In this document: positions 4,782 through 34,598 of the stretch, piece after piece
Position numbering within the stretch: position 1 is the first letter of the stretch
Layout of the letters: each line of letters starts with the position of its first letter
NCBI GenBank assembly: GCA_963764455.1
Contig: CAVXSN010000019.1
Location: forward strand, 3,369-67,368
Length of the DNA stretch: 64,000 bases
Reading direction: 5' to 3'
From: Ilumatobacteraceae bacterium
Lineage (GTDB): Bacteria > Actinomycetota > Acidimicrobiia > Acidimicrobiales > Ilumatobacteraceae
Notes under the pieces: generated by a model
Databases searched by the model: none
Told to the model about the DNA's origin: nothing
What the model saw: only the letters and a program-made list of their open reading frames with translations
Made by a program: the position numbers and the translations under genes

Positions 4782-5501
4782 TCATGGGGTGGTTCGGTCG
4801 CCGCGGACGAGCCACTCTGCGACCTTGGCGGTGACGACCGCGAACGTTGATATTCCGACGACCATGGTGACGCCGCCGACGACCCGCCCCGCCGTGGTTA
4901 TCGGAAACACGTCGCCATAACCAACGGTCGTTATCGTCGCTGTCGACCACCAGAGCGCATCGAAGAACGAACCGTGTCGGCCACCGACGCCGACGTCTTC
5001 GGCCAGCGTGAACGCGGCTGCCGCGGTGAGCCACGTCATCCCCGCCGCTCCAAGCGCGATACGCCCGGCGTTGCGCCGAAGGTAGGTGCGGCTCTCGGCT
5101 GCGGCCGCGCCGCCGATTGCCGCGAGACGGGCGAGCGCGGCGGCGGCGCGGAGCCCGCGCACACCTCGCAGCGCCCGCAGCAAGCCGAACGGTCCCAAGT
5201 ACGGGAGGATGGCGATTGCCTGAGTGACGACGATGACGAGCGAAGTCCATTCGTGGCGTGCGTAGGCACGTCGATTCGAGGCGAGAGCCAGCTCGACGAA
5301 GTAGTCCACGGCAAAGGCGATCAGCACGATGACATTCACGGTGTCGATCAGCCGCCGGTCGACCGTGGGCAACTCCTCGCGCTTGATCTCCACCAACAAG
5401 AACGGCAAGGTGCGGATTGCCAACACGAGCAGCACACCGTCCGTTCGTGCTCGCCAGCGTGTTAGGCGCGGGGTCAAGTACTCGGGCTCTTGCTCCACCA
5501 C
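4782..5501 (-). CDS. Potassium channel, voltage-gated-like (Kv) family
   Basis: Selectivity filter WWSTATITTVGYGD; S4-like LLRALRGVRGLR; several TM helices; intact ORF. Confidence 0.93.
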   Translation of the reverse strand: MVEQEPEYLTPRLTRWRARTDGVLLVLAIRTLPFLLVEIKREELPTVDRRLIDTVNVIVLIAFAVDYFVELALASNRRAYARHEWTSLVIVVTQAIAILPYLGPFGLLRALRGVRGLRAAAALARLAAIGGAAAAESRTYLRRNAGRIALGAAGMTWLTAAAAFTLAEDVGVGGRHGSFFDALWWSTATITTVGYGDVFPITTAGRVVGGVTMVVGISTFAVVTAKVAEWLVRGDRTTP

Positions 5502-5567
5502 GGAACGGACGCTATGTCCAGGCCCACGATCGACGAGGGATGGTCCGCCGGCCGATGGCGGTCGTCA

Positions 5568-5591
5568 TCGGAGTCCTCAGTCAGTCCTCAG
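5568..5591. repeat. Putative integrase arm-type site (tandem GTCCTCA)
   Basis: TCGGAGTCCTCAGTCAGTCCTCAG, about 100 bp inside the nadK-side att repeat. Confidence 0.7.
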
Positions 5592-5692
5592 TAGCGGTTG
5601 TCACGCCTTGCGACGGTTGGCGACGGTTGGTGACGAAATCGGTGCATCGCGCCTGCTCAGCTTGGACATCCACCCTCGCGCCGCAGGTCAGC

Positions 5693-5734
5693 CAGCACTA
5701 GCGATCCATGAGCCCGAACTTCGACTTCAGGATC
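5693..5734. repeat. att site, nadK-side copy (restores nadK C-terminus and stop)
   Basis: Encodes ILKSKFGLMDR* on the minus strand; matches 348-389. Confidence 0.92.
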
Positions 5735-6558
5735 TGGTGGTAGCGGTACGGCCCGAAGCGAACGAAGCGGGCCGTCTCCTCGGCCGGTCGGCAGCGCACG
5801 GTGTCGCCGGGATCGATCGTCATCACGAGTTGACCGTCGACGGCAACCTCCGCCCGCCGGTGCCCGGCGACCTCGATCTCGACCGTCTCGGTTGGGTCGA
5901 GCACGAGGGTGCGGTCGAACAGCATGTGTGGCGACACGGGTGTCAGCAGCAACGCGCGGTGCCGAGGCGACACCACAGGGCCACGGGCTGACAGTGAGTA
6001 CGCGGTCGACCCGGTCGGCGTCGAAACGATCAGACCATCGGCGAGATAGCTCGTGAACGGCTCGCCGTCGATCCGAGCGAGCAGGCGTACCGTGTGCCCG
6101 GACTCGTGCTTCTCGACGACCACTTCGTTGAGGGCGCGCCACCGCCCGAGCGCCTCGCTGCCGCGGTGGGCCTCGATGTGCAGCATCAGCCGTACATCGA
6201 GGTGCCACTCCCCGACGCGCTCACCGAGGGTGAAGCGTTCGAGCGCATCGGTGACGTCGGCCGGTTCGATCTCGGTGAGGTAGCCGAGTTGGCCGAGGTT
6301 CACGCCGAGCAGCGGCACCGCGGCTCCCTCGAGCGCACCGACGGCTCGCAGCATCGTGCCGTCGCCGCCGAGGCAGAGCACGACATCGGCGTCGCTGAGC
6401 GGCCGCTCGCCGACATGGTGATGGAGCCCCAGCTCGGCGCCGTCGTCGGGGAGCAGCCATCCCTCGTGGTCGTGCTTGACGATCCACGTCATCGTCTCCT
6501 CGATGATGTCGACGACGTCTGGGCGCTCGTAGTGAGCGCAGATGGCGATCCTCGTCAC
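5698..6558 (-). CDS. nadK: NAD(+)/NADH kinase
   Basis: LGGDGTML, GVNLGQLGYL, ALNE, DGLIVSTPTGSTAYSLSA motifs; GTG start overlaps tlyA stop. Confidence 0.96.
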   Translation of the reverse strand: MTRIAICAHYERPDVVDIIEETMTWIVKHDHEGWLLPDDGAELGLHHHVGERPLSDADVVLCLGGDGTMLRAVGALEGAAVPLLGVNLGQLGYLTEIEPADVTDALERFTLGERVGEWHLDVRLMLHIEAHRGSEALGRWRALNEVVVEKHESGHTVRLLARIDGEPFTSYLADGLIVSTPTGSTAYSLSARGPVVSPRHRALLLTPVSPHMLFDRTLVLDPTETVEIEVAGHRRAEVAVDGQLVMTIDPGDTVRCRPAEETARFVRFGPYRYHQILKSKFGLMDR

Positions 6559-7310
6559 GGCGTCCGCGCCTCGCTCGTGCGTGCGTACACCAGGAGCTCC
6601 TTGTTGCCCTCGCCTCCGAGGATCGGGGAGTCCGTCCATCCCCGAACGTCGCATCCCGCGTGTCGGAGCGCCGCGTCGATCTCGCTCCTGACCCGGTCGT
6701 GAATGGCCGGATCGGTGACGATGCCGCGGCCGCGGCCGACCTCCGCCTTGCCCGCTTCGAACTGTGGCTTCACCAGCAGGACCATCGCACCCCCAGGCTT
6801 GCACAACGCGGTGAGCGGCGGGATGACCGTTCTGAGCGAGATGAACGAAACGTCGGCGACTGCCGCATCGACCGGACCACCGATCGTCTCGACGGTCGTG
6901 TGGCGGATGTTCGTGCGCTCCAGGACCACGACCCGCGGATCGTCGCGCAACCTCGGGTGCAGTTGGCCGTGACCGACGTCGAGGGCGACGACCTCGGTCG
7001 CATCGCGCGAGAGCAGGCAGTCGGTGAAGCCTCCCGTCGATGCGCCGCAGTCGAGAACGCGCCATCCGGAGACGTCGATGCCGAAATGCTCCAGCGCGCG
7101 GTCGAGCTTCTCGCCGCCGCGACCGACGAAGCGGGCGGGCGGACCGATGACGACGATGTTGTCGCCGGGCGCCACGAGTCGCCCCGCCTTGTCGGCAACC
7201 GCTCCGTTGACGAGGACGCGCCCGTCAGCGATGAGCGCCTGGGCCTGGCCGCGTGCCGGCGTGAGGCTCCGGCGAACGAGTTCGGCGTCGAGGCGCCTCC
7301 TGGCGGCCAT
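6555..7310 (-). CDS. tlyA: TlyA-family rRNA 2'-O-methyltransferase
   Basis: MAARRRLDAELVRR S4 domain; RGGEKL, LDCGASTGGFTDCLL, DVSFISL, LVKPQFEAG, GNKE. Confidence 0.95.
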   Translation of the reverse strand: MAARRRLDAELVRRSLTPARGQAQALIADGRVLVNGAVADKAGRLVAPGDNIVVIGPPARFVGRGGEKLDRALEHFGIDVSGWRVLDCGASTGGFTDCLLSRDATEVVALDVGHGQLHPRLRDDPRVVVLERTNIRHTTVETIGGPVDAAVADVSFISLRTVIPPLTALCKPGGAMVLLVKPQFEAGKAEVGRGRGIVTDPAIHDRVRSEIDAALRHAGCDVRGWTDSPILGGEGNKELLVYARTSEARTP

Positions 7311-32247: not shown

Positions 32248-33003
32248 CTATGGAGCAGGGGCCACGCAGCTCAGCTTGACGTCAACCGTGCCGCCGTCGA
32301 GGTTGTTCACCGGGTGCGTGAACTCGATCATGTGGGTGGTCTCCGGTCCCGGCGGGACGGTCTTCAGCCGTTTGATCGTGAGGTCCTTGTCCTCGATCCT
32401 GCGCCTGACTCCTTTGCTGTCGACGACGATGACCTCGACTGTGCAGGTGCGATCCGGCGGCAGGTCGCTGACGGTCAGGATCCACCGATCCCTGCCGTTC
32501 ACCCTCCCGTTGCTCTCCAACTCCCACGAGCTTCCGCACGGGCCCTTGCCCTGGTCCTTGAACGGGGTGAACGGGATGTTGAGCTTGGGGATCGTGAAGC
32601 GGTAGACCTCACGGGGCGGCGGCGCGGGATCGACCGATACCTCCTGCCGGTCGGTGCGCAGCCCGTACCCCGACGCATGCGCCGCCGACGAGTCCGATTC
32701 GACCACGCTGGAGACGACAACCGATTCCGTGGTCGGTGCGGCCTGCGCCGCTTCCGATGTCGACGTGACCACTTCGGTCGTCGGCGCCGGCTCGCTCGCC
32801 GGCGCGGGCTCGCTGGTCGGCGGGGGCTCGGTGGTCGGCGCCTGCTCGGTGGTCGGCGCCGGCTCGTCGACCGGCACGGTTGCCGTTGGACCGTCGCAGA
32901 CCGATGCGGCGGCGCCGCCGGTCGCTGCCGACGTGATGGCCGGGACCAGTGGGAACGCTGCGACCAGCCCGCTCACCATCAACACGCGTCGTTGCCTTCT
33001 CAT
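32248..33003 (-). CDS. Hypothetical secreted protein with EPAPTT repeats and C-terminal beta-rich domain
   Basis: Signal peptide, Pro/Thr linker, Cys-containing C-terminal domain; RBS AAGGAG. Confidence 0.6.
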   Translation of the reverse strand: MRRQRRVLMVSGLVAAFPLVPAITSAATGGAAASVCDGPTATVPVDEPAPTTEQAPTTEPPPTSEPAPASEPAPTTEVVTSTSEAAQAAPTTESVVVSSVVESDSSAAHASGYGLRTDRQEVSVDPAPPPREVYRFTIPKLNIPFTPFKDQGKGPCGSSWELESNGRVNGRDRWILTVSDLPPDRTCTVEVIVVDSKGVRRRIEDKDLTIKRLKTVPPGPETTHMIEFTHPVNNLDGGTVDVKLSCVAPAP

Positions 33004-33141
33004 GGTTGCTCTCCTTGCGTCGCATCGCGGCTCCGGGTGAGCTGCTGATGTCATCGGCTTATGCGCCGAGCCGAGACCGCGTCACGCCGGACTTGTGGCA
33101 ATCGCGTGACACTGCAATGTGACGAGGAGTTCTGCCGCCTG

Positions 33142-33471
33142 TCAGCGTGTTGAGCGGCGCTGCAGCCGAGCGCTACGCAGGTCCCAGGACTCCCCGGCAT
33201 CGAGCAGCCAGCTCACCGCTTCGGCCAGCCGAGCGGTGGTCGCTCGGTACTTCACCTCGCGCCCTGAGCGTTCGGCGGCGACCAGCCCGGCGTCCTCCAG
33301 CGCCTTGAGGTGCTTGACGATCGCTTGGCGTGAGATCGAGGCGTCGGCGGCGAATTGGGTTGCGGTACGCGGTCCGTCGTGGACGAGCGATTGCAGCAGA
33401 TCACGACGGGTCGGGTCGGCGAGAGCGATGAACAGTTCGTCGAGCGGCCGTCGCGAGCCCGCGGCGTTCAC
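33142..33471 (-). CDS. ArsR/SmtB-family transcriptional regulator
   Basis: FIALADPTRRDLL, ISRQAIVKHLKALEDAGLV..ERSGREVKY; GTGA overlap with the SRPBCC stop. Confidence 0.92.
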   Translation of the reverse strand: MNAAGSRRPLDELFIALADPTRRDLLQSLVHDGPRTATQFAADASISRQAIVKHLKALEDAGLVAAERSGREVKYRATTARLAEAVSWLLDAGESWDLRSARLQRRSTR

Positions 33472-33881
33472 GCGGCGACGAGCATCCTGGAGCACGCACG
33501 CAGGCACGACCCGCGAATTGCCCATGTCGTCGCGGCCCGCGTGACCGCGATCTCTCGCGGCGCAGGAAACGTCTCGACGATGCGGAGCGCCGCTCCCCCA
33601 GTCGTCGAACCGACGACCAGCTCGACCGTCGACGTTGCGTCCTCGTCGCCGCTCGGCCACCAGACGAAACACACCCGCTCGCCCTCGACGACTTCCGTGA
33701 CCCTGACACCGCGTTCGATGTCCCCGTCGGTGACCGTCCCCTCGGCGCCGGGCTCGACGACGACGTCAGCTTCGTCGACCATCCACTCGACCCAGCCGTT
33801 GCCGTCGCCGACGAGGTACCAAACGTCCTCCCCGGACAGCTCCAGGTCGACATTGCGGGTCACGACGGTGGTGTCATCCAT
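33468..33881 (-). CDS. SRPBCC (AHSA1/START-like) domain protein
   Basis: VTRNVDLELSGEDVW...W, VTEVVEGERVCFVWW, STVEL, LRIVET pattern. Confidence 0.82.
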   Translation of the reverse strand: MDDTTVVTRNVDLELSGEDVWYLVGDGNGWVEWMVDEADVVVEPGAEGTVTDGDIERGVRVTEVVEGERVCFVWWPSGDEDATSTVELVVGSTTGGAALRIVETFPAPREIAVTRAATTWAIRGSCLRACSRMLVAA

Positions 33882-33897
33882 GGATTCGAATCATAGC

Positions 33898-33913
33898 GCA
33901 ACCCAATGGTTGC
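33898..33913. promoter_or_regulatory. Operator 1: GCAACC-CAAT-GGTTGC
   Basis: Palindrome just upstream of the minus-strand -10 TATGAT (33890-33895) and overlapping the predicted clpP -35 TTGCAC (33910-33915). Confidence 0.72.
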
Positions 33914-33940
33914 ACGTCGCATGCCGGTCGTCTATCGTCA

Positions 33941-33962
33941 TGTGCAACTCATGAGTTGCACA
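33941..33962. promoter_or_regulatory. Operator 2: perfect 22-bp palindrome TGTGCAACTCATGAGTTGCACA
   Basis: Same GCAAC-N6-GTTGC core; immediately downstream of the predicted -10 TATCGT (33933-33938) of clpP. Confidence 0.78.
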
Positions 33963-33989
33963 AACCATGTACTCGACAAGGAGGCATCC

Positions 33990-34598
33990 ATGCTCGTCCC
34001 GACCGTCATCGAATCGAGCCCCCGCGGCGAGCGGGCATACGACATCTACTCCCGCCTGCTCGCCAACCGGATCGTGTTCCTCGGGACCGCGATCGACGAC
34101 AACGTTGCGAACCTCGTCGTCGCGCAGCTGATCCATCTCGAATCCGAGAACCCCGATCAGGACATCTCGCTCTACATCAACTCTCCGGGGGGCGACATGA
34201 CCGGACTGTTCGCGATCCACGACACGATGCAGTACATCGCCCCGGACGTCGCGACCATCTGCGTCGGTCAGGCGTGCTCGGCCGGCGCAGTTCTCCTCGC
34301 GGCCGGCGCCCCCGGAAAACGATCGGCACTCCCGAACGCCAGGGTGCTGATCCACCAGCCGCACGGCGGTGCGCAGGGCCAGACCGTCGACATGGAGTTG
34401 GCGGTCAAGGAGATGGTCGAGATCCGCGAGCGGATGGTCGACATCCTCGTCAAGGCCACCGGCCAGCCGCGCGAGCGGGTCGCCGCCGACATCGACCGCG
34501 ACTACACCGTCCGCGGCGAGGACGCCGTCGCCTACGGCCTCGTCGACCACGTCATCGAACGCCGCCAGCTCGCCCTCCCGTCGGTCGCCGCGGCCTGA
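33990..34598 (+). CDS. clpP: Clp protease proteolytic subunit (stand-alone paralog)
   Basis: [19 protein letters not shown], triad Ser (QACSAG), His (IHQP), Asp (DRD); RBS AAGGAGG. Confidence 0.96.

Follow-up and report, generated by a model that had tools for sequence, protein, structure and literature searches.

A three-gene cassette of Actinomycetota in which an ArsR-type protein probably represses both its own SRPBCC operon and an accessory clpP

Introduction

Few two-gene regulator modules are as common in Actinomycetota as pairs of an ArsR-type regulator and an Aha1-type (COG3832) protein, and we know of no target or signal for them so far. Actinobacteria, for their part, cannot do without Clp proteolysis, which in them is also a drug target; the transcriptional control of Clp that has been described (through ClgR and PopR) comes, to our knowledge, from a few model genera.

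The ArsR-COG3832 (Aha1-family) modules were described by Makarova, Wolf and Koonin in 2009 as strictly two-gene units, chromosomal and present in several paralogous copies per genome, for which a toxin-antitoxin-like function, resistance or a role as ‘generic regulators’ was considered and no output gene was given (PMC2701414). A similar arrangement is found in M. tuberculosis, where Rv2034-Rv2035(-Rv2036) combines an ArsR-family dimer with an SRPBCC (polyketide_cyc2) protein in one operon with overlapping frames, and where a palindromic operator over the core promoter of Rv2034 (-30 to +3) leads to autorepression (PMC3338718). The initial annotation of the locus described below took ArsR-SRPBCC pairs to be established, autoregulated small-molecule response units, which overstates the case: autoregulation has been shown for Rv2034 (PMC3338718), while no ligand has been established and the function of the pair is open (PMC2701414).

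Conditional extra ClpP paralogs that stand beside a housekeeping Clp system are known from Streptomyces, in which PopR and ClgR control clpP3clpP4 and clpP1clpP2; these regulators are ClgR-type activators, degraded by ClpP1P2, with sites of the form GTTCGC-N5-GCG and TCTGCC-N3-GGC... (PMC9765437, PMC9775585). ClpP-ADEP, a further ClpP paralog whose role is specialised, is also described for an acyldepsipeptide producer (PMC12607617).

The locus considered here lies in a stretch of 64,000 nucleotides from a member of the Ilumatobacteraceae (the whole stretch, at its full length, being termed ‘the window’). It contains the same domain pair as the ArsR-COG3832 modules, of which the source genome likewise holds at least two copies, but one subfamily is here tied to a third gene, clpP, through shared predicted operators. 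Compared with Rv2034-Rv2035, a system alike in arrangement, the gene order is reversed (the SRPBCC gene comes first) and a clpP gene is attached that the M. tuberculosis system does not have. Compared with the Streptomyces systems, the extra ClpP is accompanied by an ArsR-type regulator with predicted sites at repressor positions (-35 and +1), unlike PopR and ClgR. Searches of the literature for an ArsR/SRPBCC(AHSA1)/ClpP cassette, for divergent arsR-clpP and for ClpP in Acidimicrobiia found no description.

Gene organization of the locus

The layout proposed by the initial annotation, in which an SRPBCC-arsR operon on the minus strand diverges from a stand-alone clpP, was confirmed, with the following features (window coordinates):

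33142-33471, minus strand: arsR-type repressor gene (ArsR/HTH_20), 109 aa, winged helix-turn-helix, PF12840 at 5e-14
33468-33881, minus strand: AHSA1-type SRPBCC gene, 137 aa, first gene of the operon
33882-33989: spacer of 108 bp between the SRPBCC gene and clpP, with divergent genes on either side
33978-33984, plus strand: Shine-Dalgarno sequence of clpP, AAGGAGG, read from the sequence
33990-34598, plus strand: accessory clpP, 202 aa, PF00574 at 1e-75, C-terminus ...SVAAA

The TGA stop codon of the SRPBCC gene and the GTG start codon of arsR overlap as GTGA (33471-33468, minus strand), an overlap that is kept in at least 16 orthologs, and a GGAGG before the clpP start codon is conserved in orthologous spacers. 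In the source genome the neighbours of clpP are ruvB, ruvA and ruvC at one end and queA and tgt at the other; neither tig nor clpX adjoins it, as the initial annotation had noted, and no biosynthetic cluster was seen in the neighbourhood of the locus. These surroundings, which vary between genera, differ from those of the ClpP-ADEP gene, which is reported to lie inside the biosynthetic cluster of the antibiotic (PMC12607617).

The putative repressor and its SRPBCC partner

In addition to PF12840, the regulator matches PF01022 (2e-9) and NF033788 (67.7 bits, against a cut-off of 55), and it possesses the winged helix-turn-helix of the ArsR/SmtB family. The window copy contains no cysteine at all, an alignment of 22 orthologs contains no conserved set of Cys, His or acidic ligands, and neither an alpha3 CxC motif nor alpha5 Asp/His/Glu ligands of a metal or metalloid site are present. 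By its sequence the protein belongs to the ArsR/SmtB fold family and falls outside the metal-sensor class, as does the Aha1-linked ArsR subfamily as a whole, in which metal-binding motifs are missing (PMC2701414). Rv2034, in contrast to this cysteine-free protein, requires Cys61 to dimerise (PMC3338718). A W..WD.R..RL motif is conserved at the C-terminus across the same 22 orthologs.

The SRPBCC protein of the window has no Pfam match at E 0.01, and its assignment comes from its relatives and its fold. The AHSA1 model (PF08327) is matched by 17 of 21 orthologs (best 9.8e-18) and by 9 of 10 distant cassette ORFs, and the Atlas neighbours of the protein are AHSA1 clusters. An AF2 model (pLDDT 92.9) displays the helix-grip fold, in which a long helix at the C-terminus covers the pocket of the beta-sheet, and has the order beta-alpha-alpha-beta6-alpha; a Foldseek search of the PDB with this model returned CV1439, MLL2253, bacterial Aha1 and CalU16 (TM 0.70-0.82, E down to 1e-7), with DynU16 also among the matches. 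When the ArsR dimer and the SRPBCC protein were co-folded, the score was 0.02 and the mark 0.32, values that are uninformative either way on binding.

The accessory ClpP

The clpP product carries the CLP_protease domain (NF001368 at 287 bits, above 249) with an intact catalytic triad, as the initial annotation had claimed: Ser97, His122 and Asp171 are present, and Ser-His-Asp is kept in all 60 of 60 cassette ClpPs. The source genome contains three ClpP loci, namely the cassette, a ClpP1-like copy and the separate tig-clpP-clpX locus that the initial annotation had proposed to look for, which was found on another contig. Because the latter two exist, the cassette clpP is a third, extra paralog beside a housekeeping locus, an arrangement of the PopR/ClpP3P4 kind. 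In the source assembly the tig-linked clpP and clpX are both split over frames; since the assembly is only 55 % complete, the splits are probably sequencing errors, the alternative being real loss. More widely, cassette genomes have three ClpPs and most others two, these falling into identity classes of 71-88, 56-63 and 46-51 %, and a clpP-clpX locus of its own was found in each of five distant genomes examined.

Phylogenies were built as quick searches, with no support measure other than SH-aLRT. In them the window copy falls in a clade of its own (SH-aLRT 96-99) that neighbours the tig-linked ClpP of actinobacteria, and the ClpP partners of the cassette are polyphyletic across carriers. The C24 copy matches M. 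tuberculosis ClpP1. A likeness of the cassette ClpP to mycobacterial ClpP2 was considered and discarded, its best PDB matches being generic single ClpPs, and a search from the ClpP for related loci returned mostly housekeeping ClpPs of other phyla, together with two cassette orthologs. The unusual QACSAG around the nucleophile, to which the initial annotation drew attention, is real in the window (GQACSAG) but is a species-level variant; the consensus of the clade, GQAASAAA, is common to the tig-linked paralog. The docking-pocket residues read S-x-Y...Y for the cassette paralog, N-x-Y...F for the tig-linked one and W-x-Y...F for the ClpP1-like one. A search of the source assembly, which is incomplete, with ARAGORN returned no tmRNA.

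Predicted operators and promoters in the divergent spacer

The 108-bp spacer holds two palindromes with the same core, both at the positions originally reported, together with predicted promoter elements:

33890-33895, minus strand: predicted -10 of SRPBCC-arsR, TATGAT, 8 nt before the ATG
33898-33913, no strand: predicted operator O1, GCAACCCAATGGTTGC, GCAAC-N6-GTTGC; adjoins the SRPBCC -10 and holds the start of the clpP -35
33910-33915, plus strand: predicted clpP -35, TTGCAC, supplied by the O1 right arm
33933-33938, plus strand: predicted clpP -10, TATCGT, 5 nt upstream of the O2 core
33941-33962, no strand: predicted operator O2, TGTGCAACTCATGAGTTGCACA, a perfect 22-bp palindrome with its GCAAC-N6-GTTGC core at 33944-33959; lies over the predicted clpP transcription start

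The two sites are about 46 bp apart. GCAAC-N6-GTTGC occurs exactly twice in the window, against an expectation of 0.05 (two or more being reached in none of 100 shuffles), and six times in the whole 3.6-Mb genome.

The clpP promoter read by the initial annotation as TTGCAC-N17-TATCGT is present to the letter, but it agrees with the consensus at just 7 of 12 positions, and a generic sigma-70 scan of the spacer called no promoter, TTGCAC falling below its threshold. The assignment therefore rests on comparative geometry. Of 37 orthologous spacers, 22 have a TAnnnT at a distance of 2-3 nt from O1, in all 22 with a start codon 6-8 nt downstream, and the SRPBCC-arsR mRNA is thus probably leaderless; in 23 of the 37 a TAnnnT lies 3-6 nt (in one case 8 nt) upstream of O2, and in 23 the distance from the -35 in the O1 arm to the TAnnnT is 17±1 nt. 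This geometry is not universal, since 14 of the 37 loci have no TAnnnT at the expected place and the spacing between sites at distant loci ranges from 27 to 53 bp.

As with Rv2034, overlapping frames in one operon are combined with a palindrome over the operon's own promoter (O1 being 2 nt from the predicted -10), whereas the palindrome itself is a different one, CCGTAAGT-N4-ACTTACGG for Rv2034 (PMC3338718) as opposed to the twin GCAAC-N6-GTTGC of the cassette. The positions of the two sites would fit repression of both promoters.

Conservation and spread

The initial annotation had named two computable outcomes that would count against it, namely that the adjacency is not conserved and that this clpP is the only housekeeping copy; neither came true, and conservation of the trio with both palindromes holds far beyond Acidimicrobiia. 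In a sample of 100 Ilumatobacteraceae genomes the trio occurs in 24 (18 of 61 genera), and it recurs, with both sites, in at least 8 further families of Acidimicrobiia (11 loci from 8 other families) and at least 8 further families of Actinomycetota. With up to one mismatch per site allowed, the proximal site, tGCAAC-N6-GTTGCAC, is found in 37 of 38 loci from Acidimicrobiia and the distal site in 36 of 38, mostly 41-49 bp upstream of the proximal one; the arms are nearly invariant at these loci, and the N6 interior and the flanks vary. A search of 401 Actinomycetota genomes for the twin-site pattern matched 34, against none of 401 for a reversed control, and in that set 24 of 29 loci have ClpP at one flank and, at the other, an AHSA1 ORF with ArsR. 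As the site pattern was the means of finding these phylum-level loci, they give no independent evidence for the sites. In what is probably the Streptomyces family there were no matches to the twin sites.

The flanking genes differ between genera, and the trio is therefore the conserved unit, chromosomal, old and largely vertically inherited, that occurs in many lineages with differing ClpP types. One distant carrier (G629) has a two-gene clpP operon under the cassette. In another genome (G031) an insertion of 782 bp splits the spacer, leaving the SRPBCC gene with an O1-type site and clpP with a twin pair, which may be viewed as a natural experiment.

The probable binding protein and the extent of its regulon

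A paralogous SRPBCC-ArsR operon of the source genome that has no clpP (contig C15) carries these arms with N5 between them, a spacing seen at 10 of 10 orthologous loci, while N6 spacing is found in every cassette locus identified by protein; similar sites also accompany SRPBCC-ArsR genes of a further family (f91), again without clpP. Because the spacing of these conserved inverted repeats co-varies with the ArsR paralog, the cassette ArsR is the likely binder of O1 and O2, binding itself being a prediction. The N5 versus N6 rule would make the two paralogous repressors a clean natural case of cross-talk avoidance.

In five relatives the short GCAAC-N6-GTTGC pattern is not enriched genome-wide (4-10 matches, against 3-30 for controls), and the extended operator occurs once per genome, always at the cassette, so that the regulon appears to be essentially local to the cassette. 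A dozen or so genome matches to GCAACC-N3-GGTTGC were considered as a regulon and rejected as REP-like hairpins (with TCGACCG...CGGTCGA arms) at the 3' ends of genes. One further N6 site of the source genome (C20:109207) precedes a gene of the dienelactone-hydrolase family, and it is not conserved, even within the genus.

A proposed mechanism and its alternatives

Taken together, the cassette is probably one in which an ArsR protein co-represses its own operon and an inducible accessory ClpP. A cysteine-free ArsR-family dimer would bind the two GCAAC-N6-GTTGC operators of the divergent spacer, O1 adjoining the SRPBCC-arsR -10 and supplying the clpP -35, and O2 covering the clpP start site; with operators placed on both promoters, occupancy would silence both the repressor operon and the extra, catalytically competent ClpP subunit. 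A signal would then release ArsR. As the ArsR has no metal site, that signal may be read via the hydrophobic pocket of the translationally coupled AHSA1-type SRPBCC protein (the more likely course) or else by ArsR. Upon release the alternative ClpP would be made, and would presumably join the tig-linked ClpP, the ClpP1-like ClpP, ClpX and ClpC, altering the capacity or the properties of the protease. A more specific form of the proposal, in which the Aha1-type protein is a sensor of proteostasis that detects a hydrophobic ligand, peptide or client arising from protease stress and, through ArsR, turns on the alternative ClpP, is possible but doubtful.

The C-termini of the products bear on another reading, an unlikely one, in which the cassette is a back-up loop for Clp capacity that follows PopR-ClpP3/4 logic: the products would be substrates of the housekeeping ClpXP via Ala-Ala or hydrophobic C-termini, and ClpP would accumulate when the protease is overloaded or inhibited. 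Fifteen of 22 family orthologs of the cassette ClpP end in -AA, the window copy ends in ...SVAAA, and an -AA end is found in only 2.2 % of source-genome ORFs and in neither the tig-linked nor the ClpP1-like paralogs; the ClpP1-like cassette partner of genome G044 ends in -IAA, the SRPBCC tails are hydrophobic (several ending in -AA), and a C-terminal Ala-Ala is the ClpXP degron of ClgR, PopR, Lon and sigma-AntA in Streptomyces (PMC9775585, PMC9765437). However, related genomes are non-independent observations, Ala-rich termini are frequent in high-GC genomes, and as a general feature of the cassette the tail fails outside the family, where only 1 of 13 ClpPs has it. Moreover, the regulator belongs to a different family, that of the ArsR-type repressors, and is no labile ClgR-type activator with an Ala-Ala degron, and its basic tails leave a further suggestion of the initial annotation, that the repressor is itself a Clp substrate, without sequence support.

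It is quite improbable that the cassette confers resistance to natural products that target ClpP (acyldepsipeptides, beta-lactones), an idea of the initial annotation, with the SRPBCC protein binding or sequestering the compound and the extra ClpP being insensitive to it. Accessory ClpP homologs are reported to protect the Streptomyces ADEP producer (PMC12607617); CalC and CalU16, of the AHSA1 fold, serve self-resistance, and CalU16 and DynU16 are among the fold matches above; and resistance to antibiotics was thought by Makarova et al. to be the likeliest role of the ArsR-COG3832 pairs (PMC2701414). Yet the fold match to CalU16 has a sequence identity of only 16-19 %, the docking pocket is undistinctive and widely variable at its first position, and the site before the hydrolase gene, which might otherwise be counted in favour, is the unconserved one. 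An old, largely vertical chromosomal cassette that has no biosynthetic cluster nearby and is combined in many lineages with different ClpP types also fits such a role poorly.

A toxin-antitoxin-like module, with the Aha1-type protein as the toxin-like component and ArsR as a labile antitoxin and repressor degraded by the adjacent ClpP, is very improbable: the pairs did emerge from a screen for such two-gene modules (259-280 cases, with lineage-specific expansions), and SRPBCC and arsR are translationally coupled, but the paper reporting the screen itself doubts their true toxin-antitoxin status (PMC2701414), a toxin-type domain is absent, ArsR (about 60 % identity) is better conserved than SRPBCC (about 40 %), the reverse of the usual pattern, and runaway induction would follow if a protease degraded the repressor of its own gene. 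Finally, although O2 as a perfect 22-mer could fold and a separate REP-like family shares a similar core, it is highly unlikely that the palindromes are another regulator's sites or RNA/DNA hairpins, given arms that are nearly invariant phylum-wide and never show compensatory substitutions around a variable interior, sites that accompany SRPBCC-ArsR even without clpP and whose spacing follows the ArsR paralog, and REP-like copies that have other flanks and other positions.

Implications

Were the sensor reading true, it would provide the first physiological output for the ArsR-COG3832 modules, which have been unexplained since 2009, and would represent a repressor-based, phylum-wide form of Clp regulation that has no relation to ClgR and PopR. 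The cassette itself gives the ArsR-Aha1 module a concrete and testable output, in the form of a first plausible target gene, and points to a second, repressor-based means of tuning Clp composition in mostly uncultured lineages of soil and water.

Organization of the cassette

The SRPBCC and arsR genes form a minus-strand pair that diverges from an accessory clpP gene, with two predicted operators (O1 and O2) in the spacer between them:

33142-33471, minus strand: arsR (ArsR/HTH_20), 109 aa; its GTG start overlaps the TGA stop of the SRPBCC ORF
33468-33881, minus strand: SRPBCC ORF, 137 aa, first gene of the pair
33898-33913: O1, GCAACCCAATGGTTGC, GCAAC-N6-GTTGC match in the spacer
33941-33962: O2, TGTGCAACTCATGAGTTGCACA, perfect 22-mer palindrome in the spacer
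33990-34598, plus strand: clpP, 202 aa, preceded by AAGGAGG and 108 bp from the SRPBCC ORF

The coordinates and sequence statements of the initial annotation for this locus were all correct, including two palindromes in the 108-bp spacer (O2 being the perfect 22-mer) and an intact ClpP triad, formed by Ser97, His122 and Asp171. It had also singled out the 'QACSAG' motif of this ClpP, which is indeed present in the window copy (as GQACSAG), but is a quirk of the species: the clade, like the housekeeping paralog, has the consensus GQAASAAA. The GCAAC-N6-GTTGC pattern has two matches in the window, both in the spacer (versus 0.05 expected), and six in the whole 3.6-Mb genome.

The cassette is flanked on one side by ruvB, ruvA, ruvC, peroxiredoxin and yebC genes, and on the other by a Pfam-less Pro/Thr-rich ORF, queA and tgt. 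A 268-aa ORF (32248-33054, minus strand), with a hydrophobic N-terminus followed by Pro/Thr/Ala-rich sequence and without a Pfam hit, follows arsR on the same strand after 87 bp and does not adjoin the cassette in the other genomes compared.

An additional ClpP

The proposal that this clpP is accessory presupposed a separate tig-clpP-clpX locus, which was found on contig C14 of the source genome (C14:236268-239562; L007:5269-8563); the cassette copy is therefore extra. A third locus, on contig C24, encodes a ClpP1-like protein that matches M. tuberculosis ClpP1 best among PDB entries. The C14 clpP is spread across three reading frames and the C14 clpX across two, whereas the locus is intact in five relatives. 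The assembly, 3.6 Mb in 25 contigs, reaches a marker completeness of only 55 %, so these splits are probably sequencing (indel) errors, although real decay may account for them instead. A search of all 25 contigs with ARAGORN did not detect a tmRNA gene, as would fit an assembly that is incomplete.

In a sample of 100 genomes of the family, proteins matching the window ClpP form three classes by identity: cassette orthologs (71-88 %), tig-linked ClpPs (56-63 %), of which nearly all genomes have one, and ClpP1-like proteins (46-51 %). Cassette carriers have three ClpPs and most non-carriers two. The carriers are the larger genomes (3.9-6.2 Mb, one incomplete MAG excepted). The nearest relatives include an Ilumatobacteraceae MAG. 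Each of five distant carriers checked also has a separate clpP-clpX locus, so that the cassette ClpP is extra there too.

Conservation of the trio and its sites

A search of 100 family genomes (61 genera) with the fast-evolving SRPBCC protein recovered it in 27 genomes and 18 genera, with ArsR and ClpP adjoining it in the same arrangement in 24 of the 27. Identities across these trios are about 80 % for ClpP, 60 % for ArsR and 40 % for SRPBCC. RuvB adjoins the cassette only within the genus, and the conserved unit is therefore the trio rather than its neighbourhood. A class-wide scan of 400 genomes with ClpP added 11 cassette loci from 8 other families. With up to one mismatch allowed per site, the proximal site (consensus atgtGCAAC-N6-GTTGCACa) is present in 37 of 38 Acidimicrobiia loci and the second in 36, mostly 41-49 bp upstream of it; the conservation of trio and palindromes on which the initial annotation depended thus holds across Acidimicrobiia. 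The arms of the sites are nearly invariant; their interior and the remaining spacer drift. In one genome (L022, G031:C1:15334-18696) the spacer is split by a 782-bp insertion carrying a methyltransferase-like ORF, and an O1-type site persists next to SRPBCC, with a complete twin pair before clpP.

Across Actinomycetota, a scan of 400 genomes for the twin-site pattern matched 33 further genomes, versus 0 for a reversed control. At 24 of the 29 twin-site loci listed, the sites lie between a ClpP gene and an ORF-ArsR pair, and nine of ten sampled ORFs beside ArsR are AHSA1 proteins. The class-level counts include two unpublished genomes (G465, G296) and the phylum-level counts four (G588, G837, G614, G553); another (G358) contributes a housekeeping sequence to the ClpP tree, and one more (G089) was included in the ClpP count search and left out of the results. 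Without unpublished genomes only one family (f101) is lost, and the conclusions are the same: the cassette is a real feature, conserved across the phylum.

The sites as probable operators of the ArsR

The source genome has one paralog of the cassette ArsR (44 % identity), encoded on contig C15 in an SRPBCC-ArsR-SRPBCC operon (C15:65824-67239; L156:2825-4240) that is GTGA-coupled like the cassette, lacks clpP and sits downstream of an ECF-sigma-like gene. Its promoter resembles a copy of the clpP promoter (-35 within site 1, TAnnnT before site 2), and its twin sites, 45 bp apart, are both GCAAC-N5-GTTGC. In protein searches, N5 sites were found in 10/10 loci orthologous to this paralog, and N6 sites in all cassette loci. 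In family f91, twin sites precede SRPBCC-ArsR alone (five loci). The N5 paralog and the f91 group form separate, fully supported clades in the ArsR tree, in which cassette ArsRs follow taxonomy, as would be expected of a vertically inherited regulator. Since the sites travel with ArsR whether clpP is present or absent, and their spacing changes with the ArsR paralog, they are best explained as predicted operators of the ArsR. That the arms instead serve as an RNA or DNA hairpin is argued against by their keeping sequence, rather than complementarity alone.

Two other kinds of element were seen in the source genome. A dienelactone-hydrolase-family gene (PF01738, 3e-33; C20:109207-109953, L157:1708-2454) is directly preceded by one GTGCAAC-N6-GTTGCAC site, which has TAGCGT 5 nt upstream. 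The gene may be an additional member of the regulon in this species; the site is absent from two same-genus genomes. A REP-like intergenic hairpin family (TCGACCG-GCAACC-N3-GGTTGC-CGGTCGA, then GTTCTCGCCTCCGCCCC), present in about a dozen copies, mostly located at the 3' ends of genes (for example C18:27156, C20:197461, C20:289357, C4:199718 and C2:36849), was rejected as a set of operators: it shares the GCAACC core, yet is a different element.

Predicted promoter layout

On the clpP side, 23 of 37 loci have a TAnnnT 3-6 nt (in one case 8 nt) upstream of O2; in these same loci it follows the TTGCnn at the end of O1 by 17±1 nt (TTGCAC-N17-TATCGT in the window). On the SRPBCC side, an opposite-strand TAnnnT lies 2-3 nt from O1 in 22/37 loci, all 22 with the SRPBCC start codon 6-8 nt beyond it, the signature of a leaderless mRNA; the predicted window -10 is TATGAT, 8 nt before ATG. 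These promoters are ones that we infer, because a generic sigma-70 scan called none in the spacer. O1 would cover the clpP -35 and abut the SRPBCC -10, and O2 would cover the clpP start, a repressor layout for both promoters.

A constant regulator with changing ClpP partners

In the ClpP tree, the cassette ClpPs of Acidimicrobiia group in a single clade (SH-aLRT 96-99) next to tig-linked actinobacterial ClpP. Those from other families are scattered over at least four further positions; several branch beside a housekeeping ClpP from the same lineage, and some are ClpP1-like. In one genus of the family (L158, G044:C1:295000-306500, 5231-6640), an A-type ArsR and an AHSA1 gene with a single N6 site are partnered by a ClpP1-like accessory ClpP ending -IAA, flanked by genes for a PEP-utilising enzyme and luciferase-like monooxygenases. 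In a distant family (L230/L248, G629:C1:3810554-3814859), twin sites stand before an operon of two clpP genes, a long-branch canonical-type copy and a ClpP1-like one, which recalls Streptomyces clpP3clpP4, but under an ArsR/AHSA1 cassette. The changes of partner reflect either repeated recruitment of clpP duplicates or replacement or conversion of the partner; whichever holds, the link of the regulator to an extra, catalytically intact ClpP is maintained (triad intact in 60/60 cassette ClpPs).

Proposed function and relation to known systems

The ArsR would repress both its own operon and the accessory clpP through the two operators, a wiring well supported by comparison of sequences; it is at this level that we infer the mechanism. 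The ArsR lacks Cys and conserved metal ligands, and a W..WD.R..RL motif is conserved at its C-terminus. With no sensor residues in the ArsR, the obvious candidate for a sensor or co-regulator is the AHSA1 protein translated together with it. The window SRPBCC ORF itself has no Pfam hit, and 17/21 of its orthologs match AHSA1; its predicted structure (pLDDT 92.9) has a helix-grip fold, its closest structures are bacterial AHSA1-like proteins (TM up to 0.82), and in the Atlas it neighbours AHSA1 clusters of Actinomycetota.

The C-termini of the family ClpP orthologs point to a possible PopR-like back-up loop: 15/22 end in -AA (versus 2.2 % of ORFs), and in Streptomyces C-terminal Ala-Ala is known to act as a ClpXP degron (PMC9775585, PMC9765437). 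Outside the family, however, 12/13 cassette ClpPs do not have this tail, which rules it out as the core mechanism.

A 2009 catalogue lists ArsR-COG3832 (Aha1) pairs as strictly two-gene modules that lack metal motifs and have no known function (PMC2701414). One such pair, Rv2034-Rv2035, acts as an autorepressor, with a palindrome that differs from GCAAC-N6-GTTGC (PMC3338718). Conditional accessory ClpPs are known in Streptomyces (PMC9765437, PMC9775585), but their regulators are activators unrelated to the cassette ArsR. A literature search, with subscription journals and about 1.7 million PMC articles outside its scope, returned no paper linking ArsR, SRPBCC/AHSA1 and ClpP. The cassette joins two known kinds of system, an ArsR-SRPBCC autorepressor and a conditional accessory ClpP.
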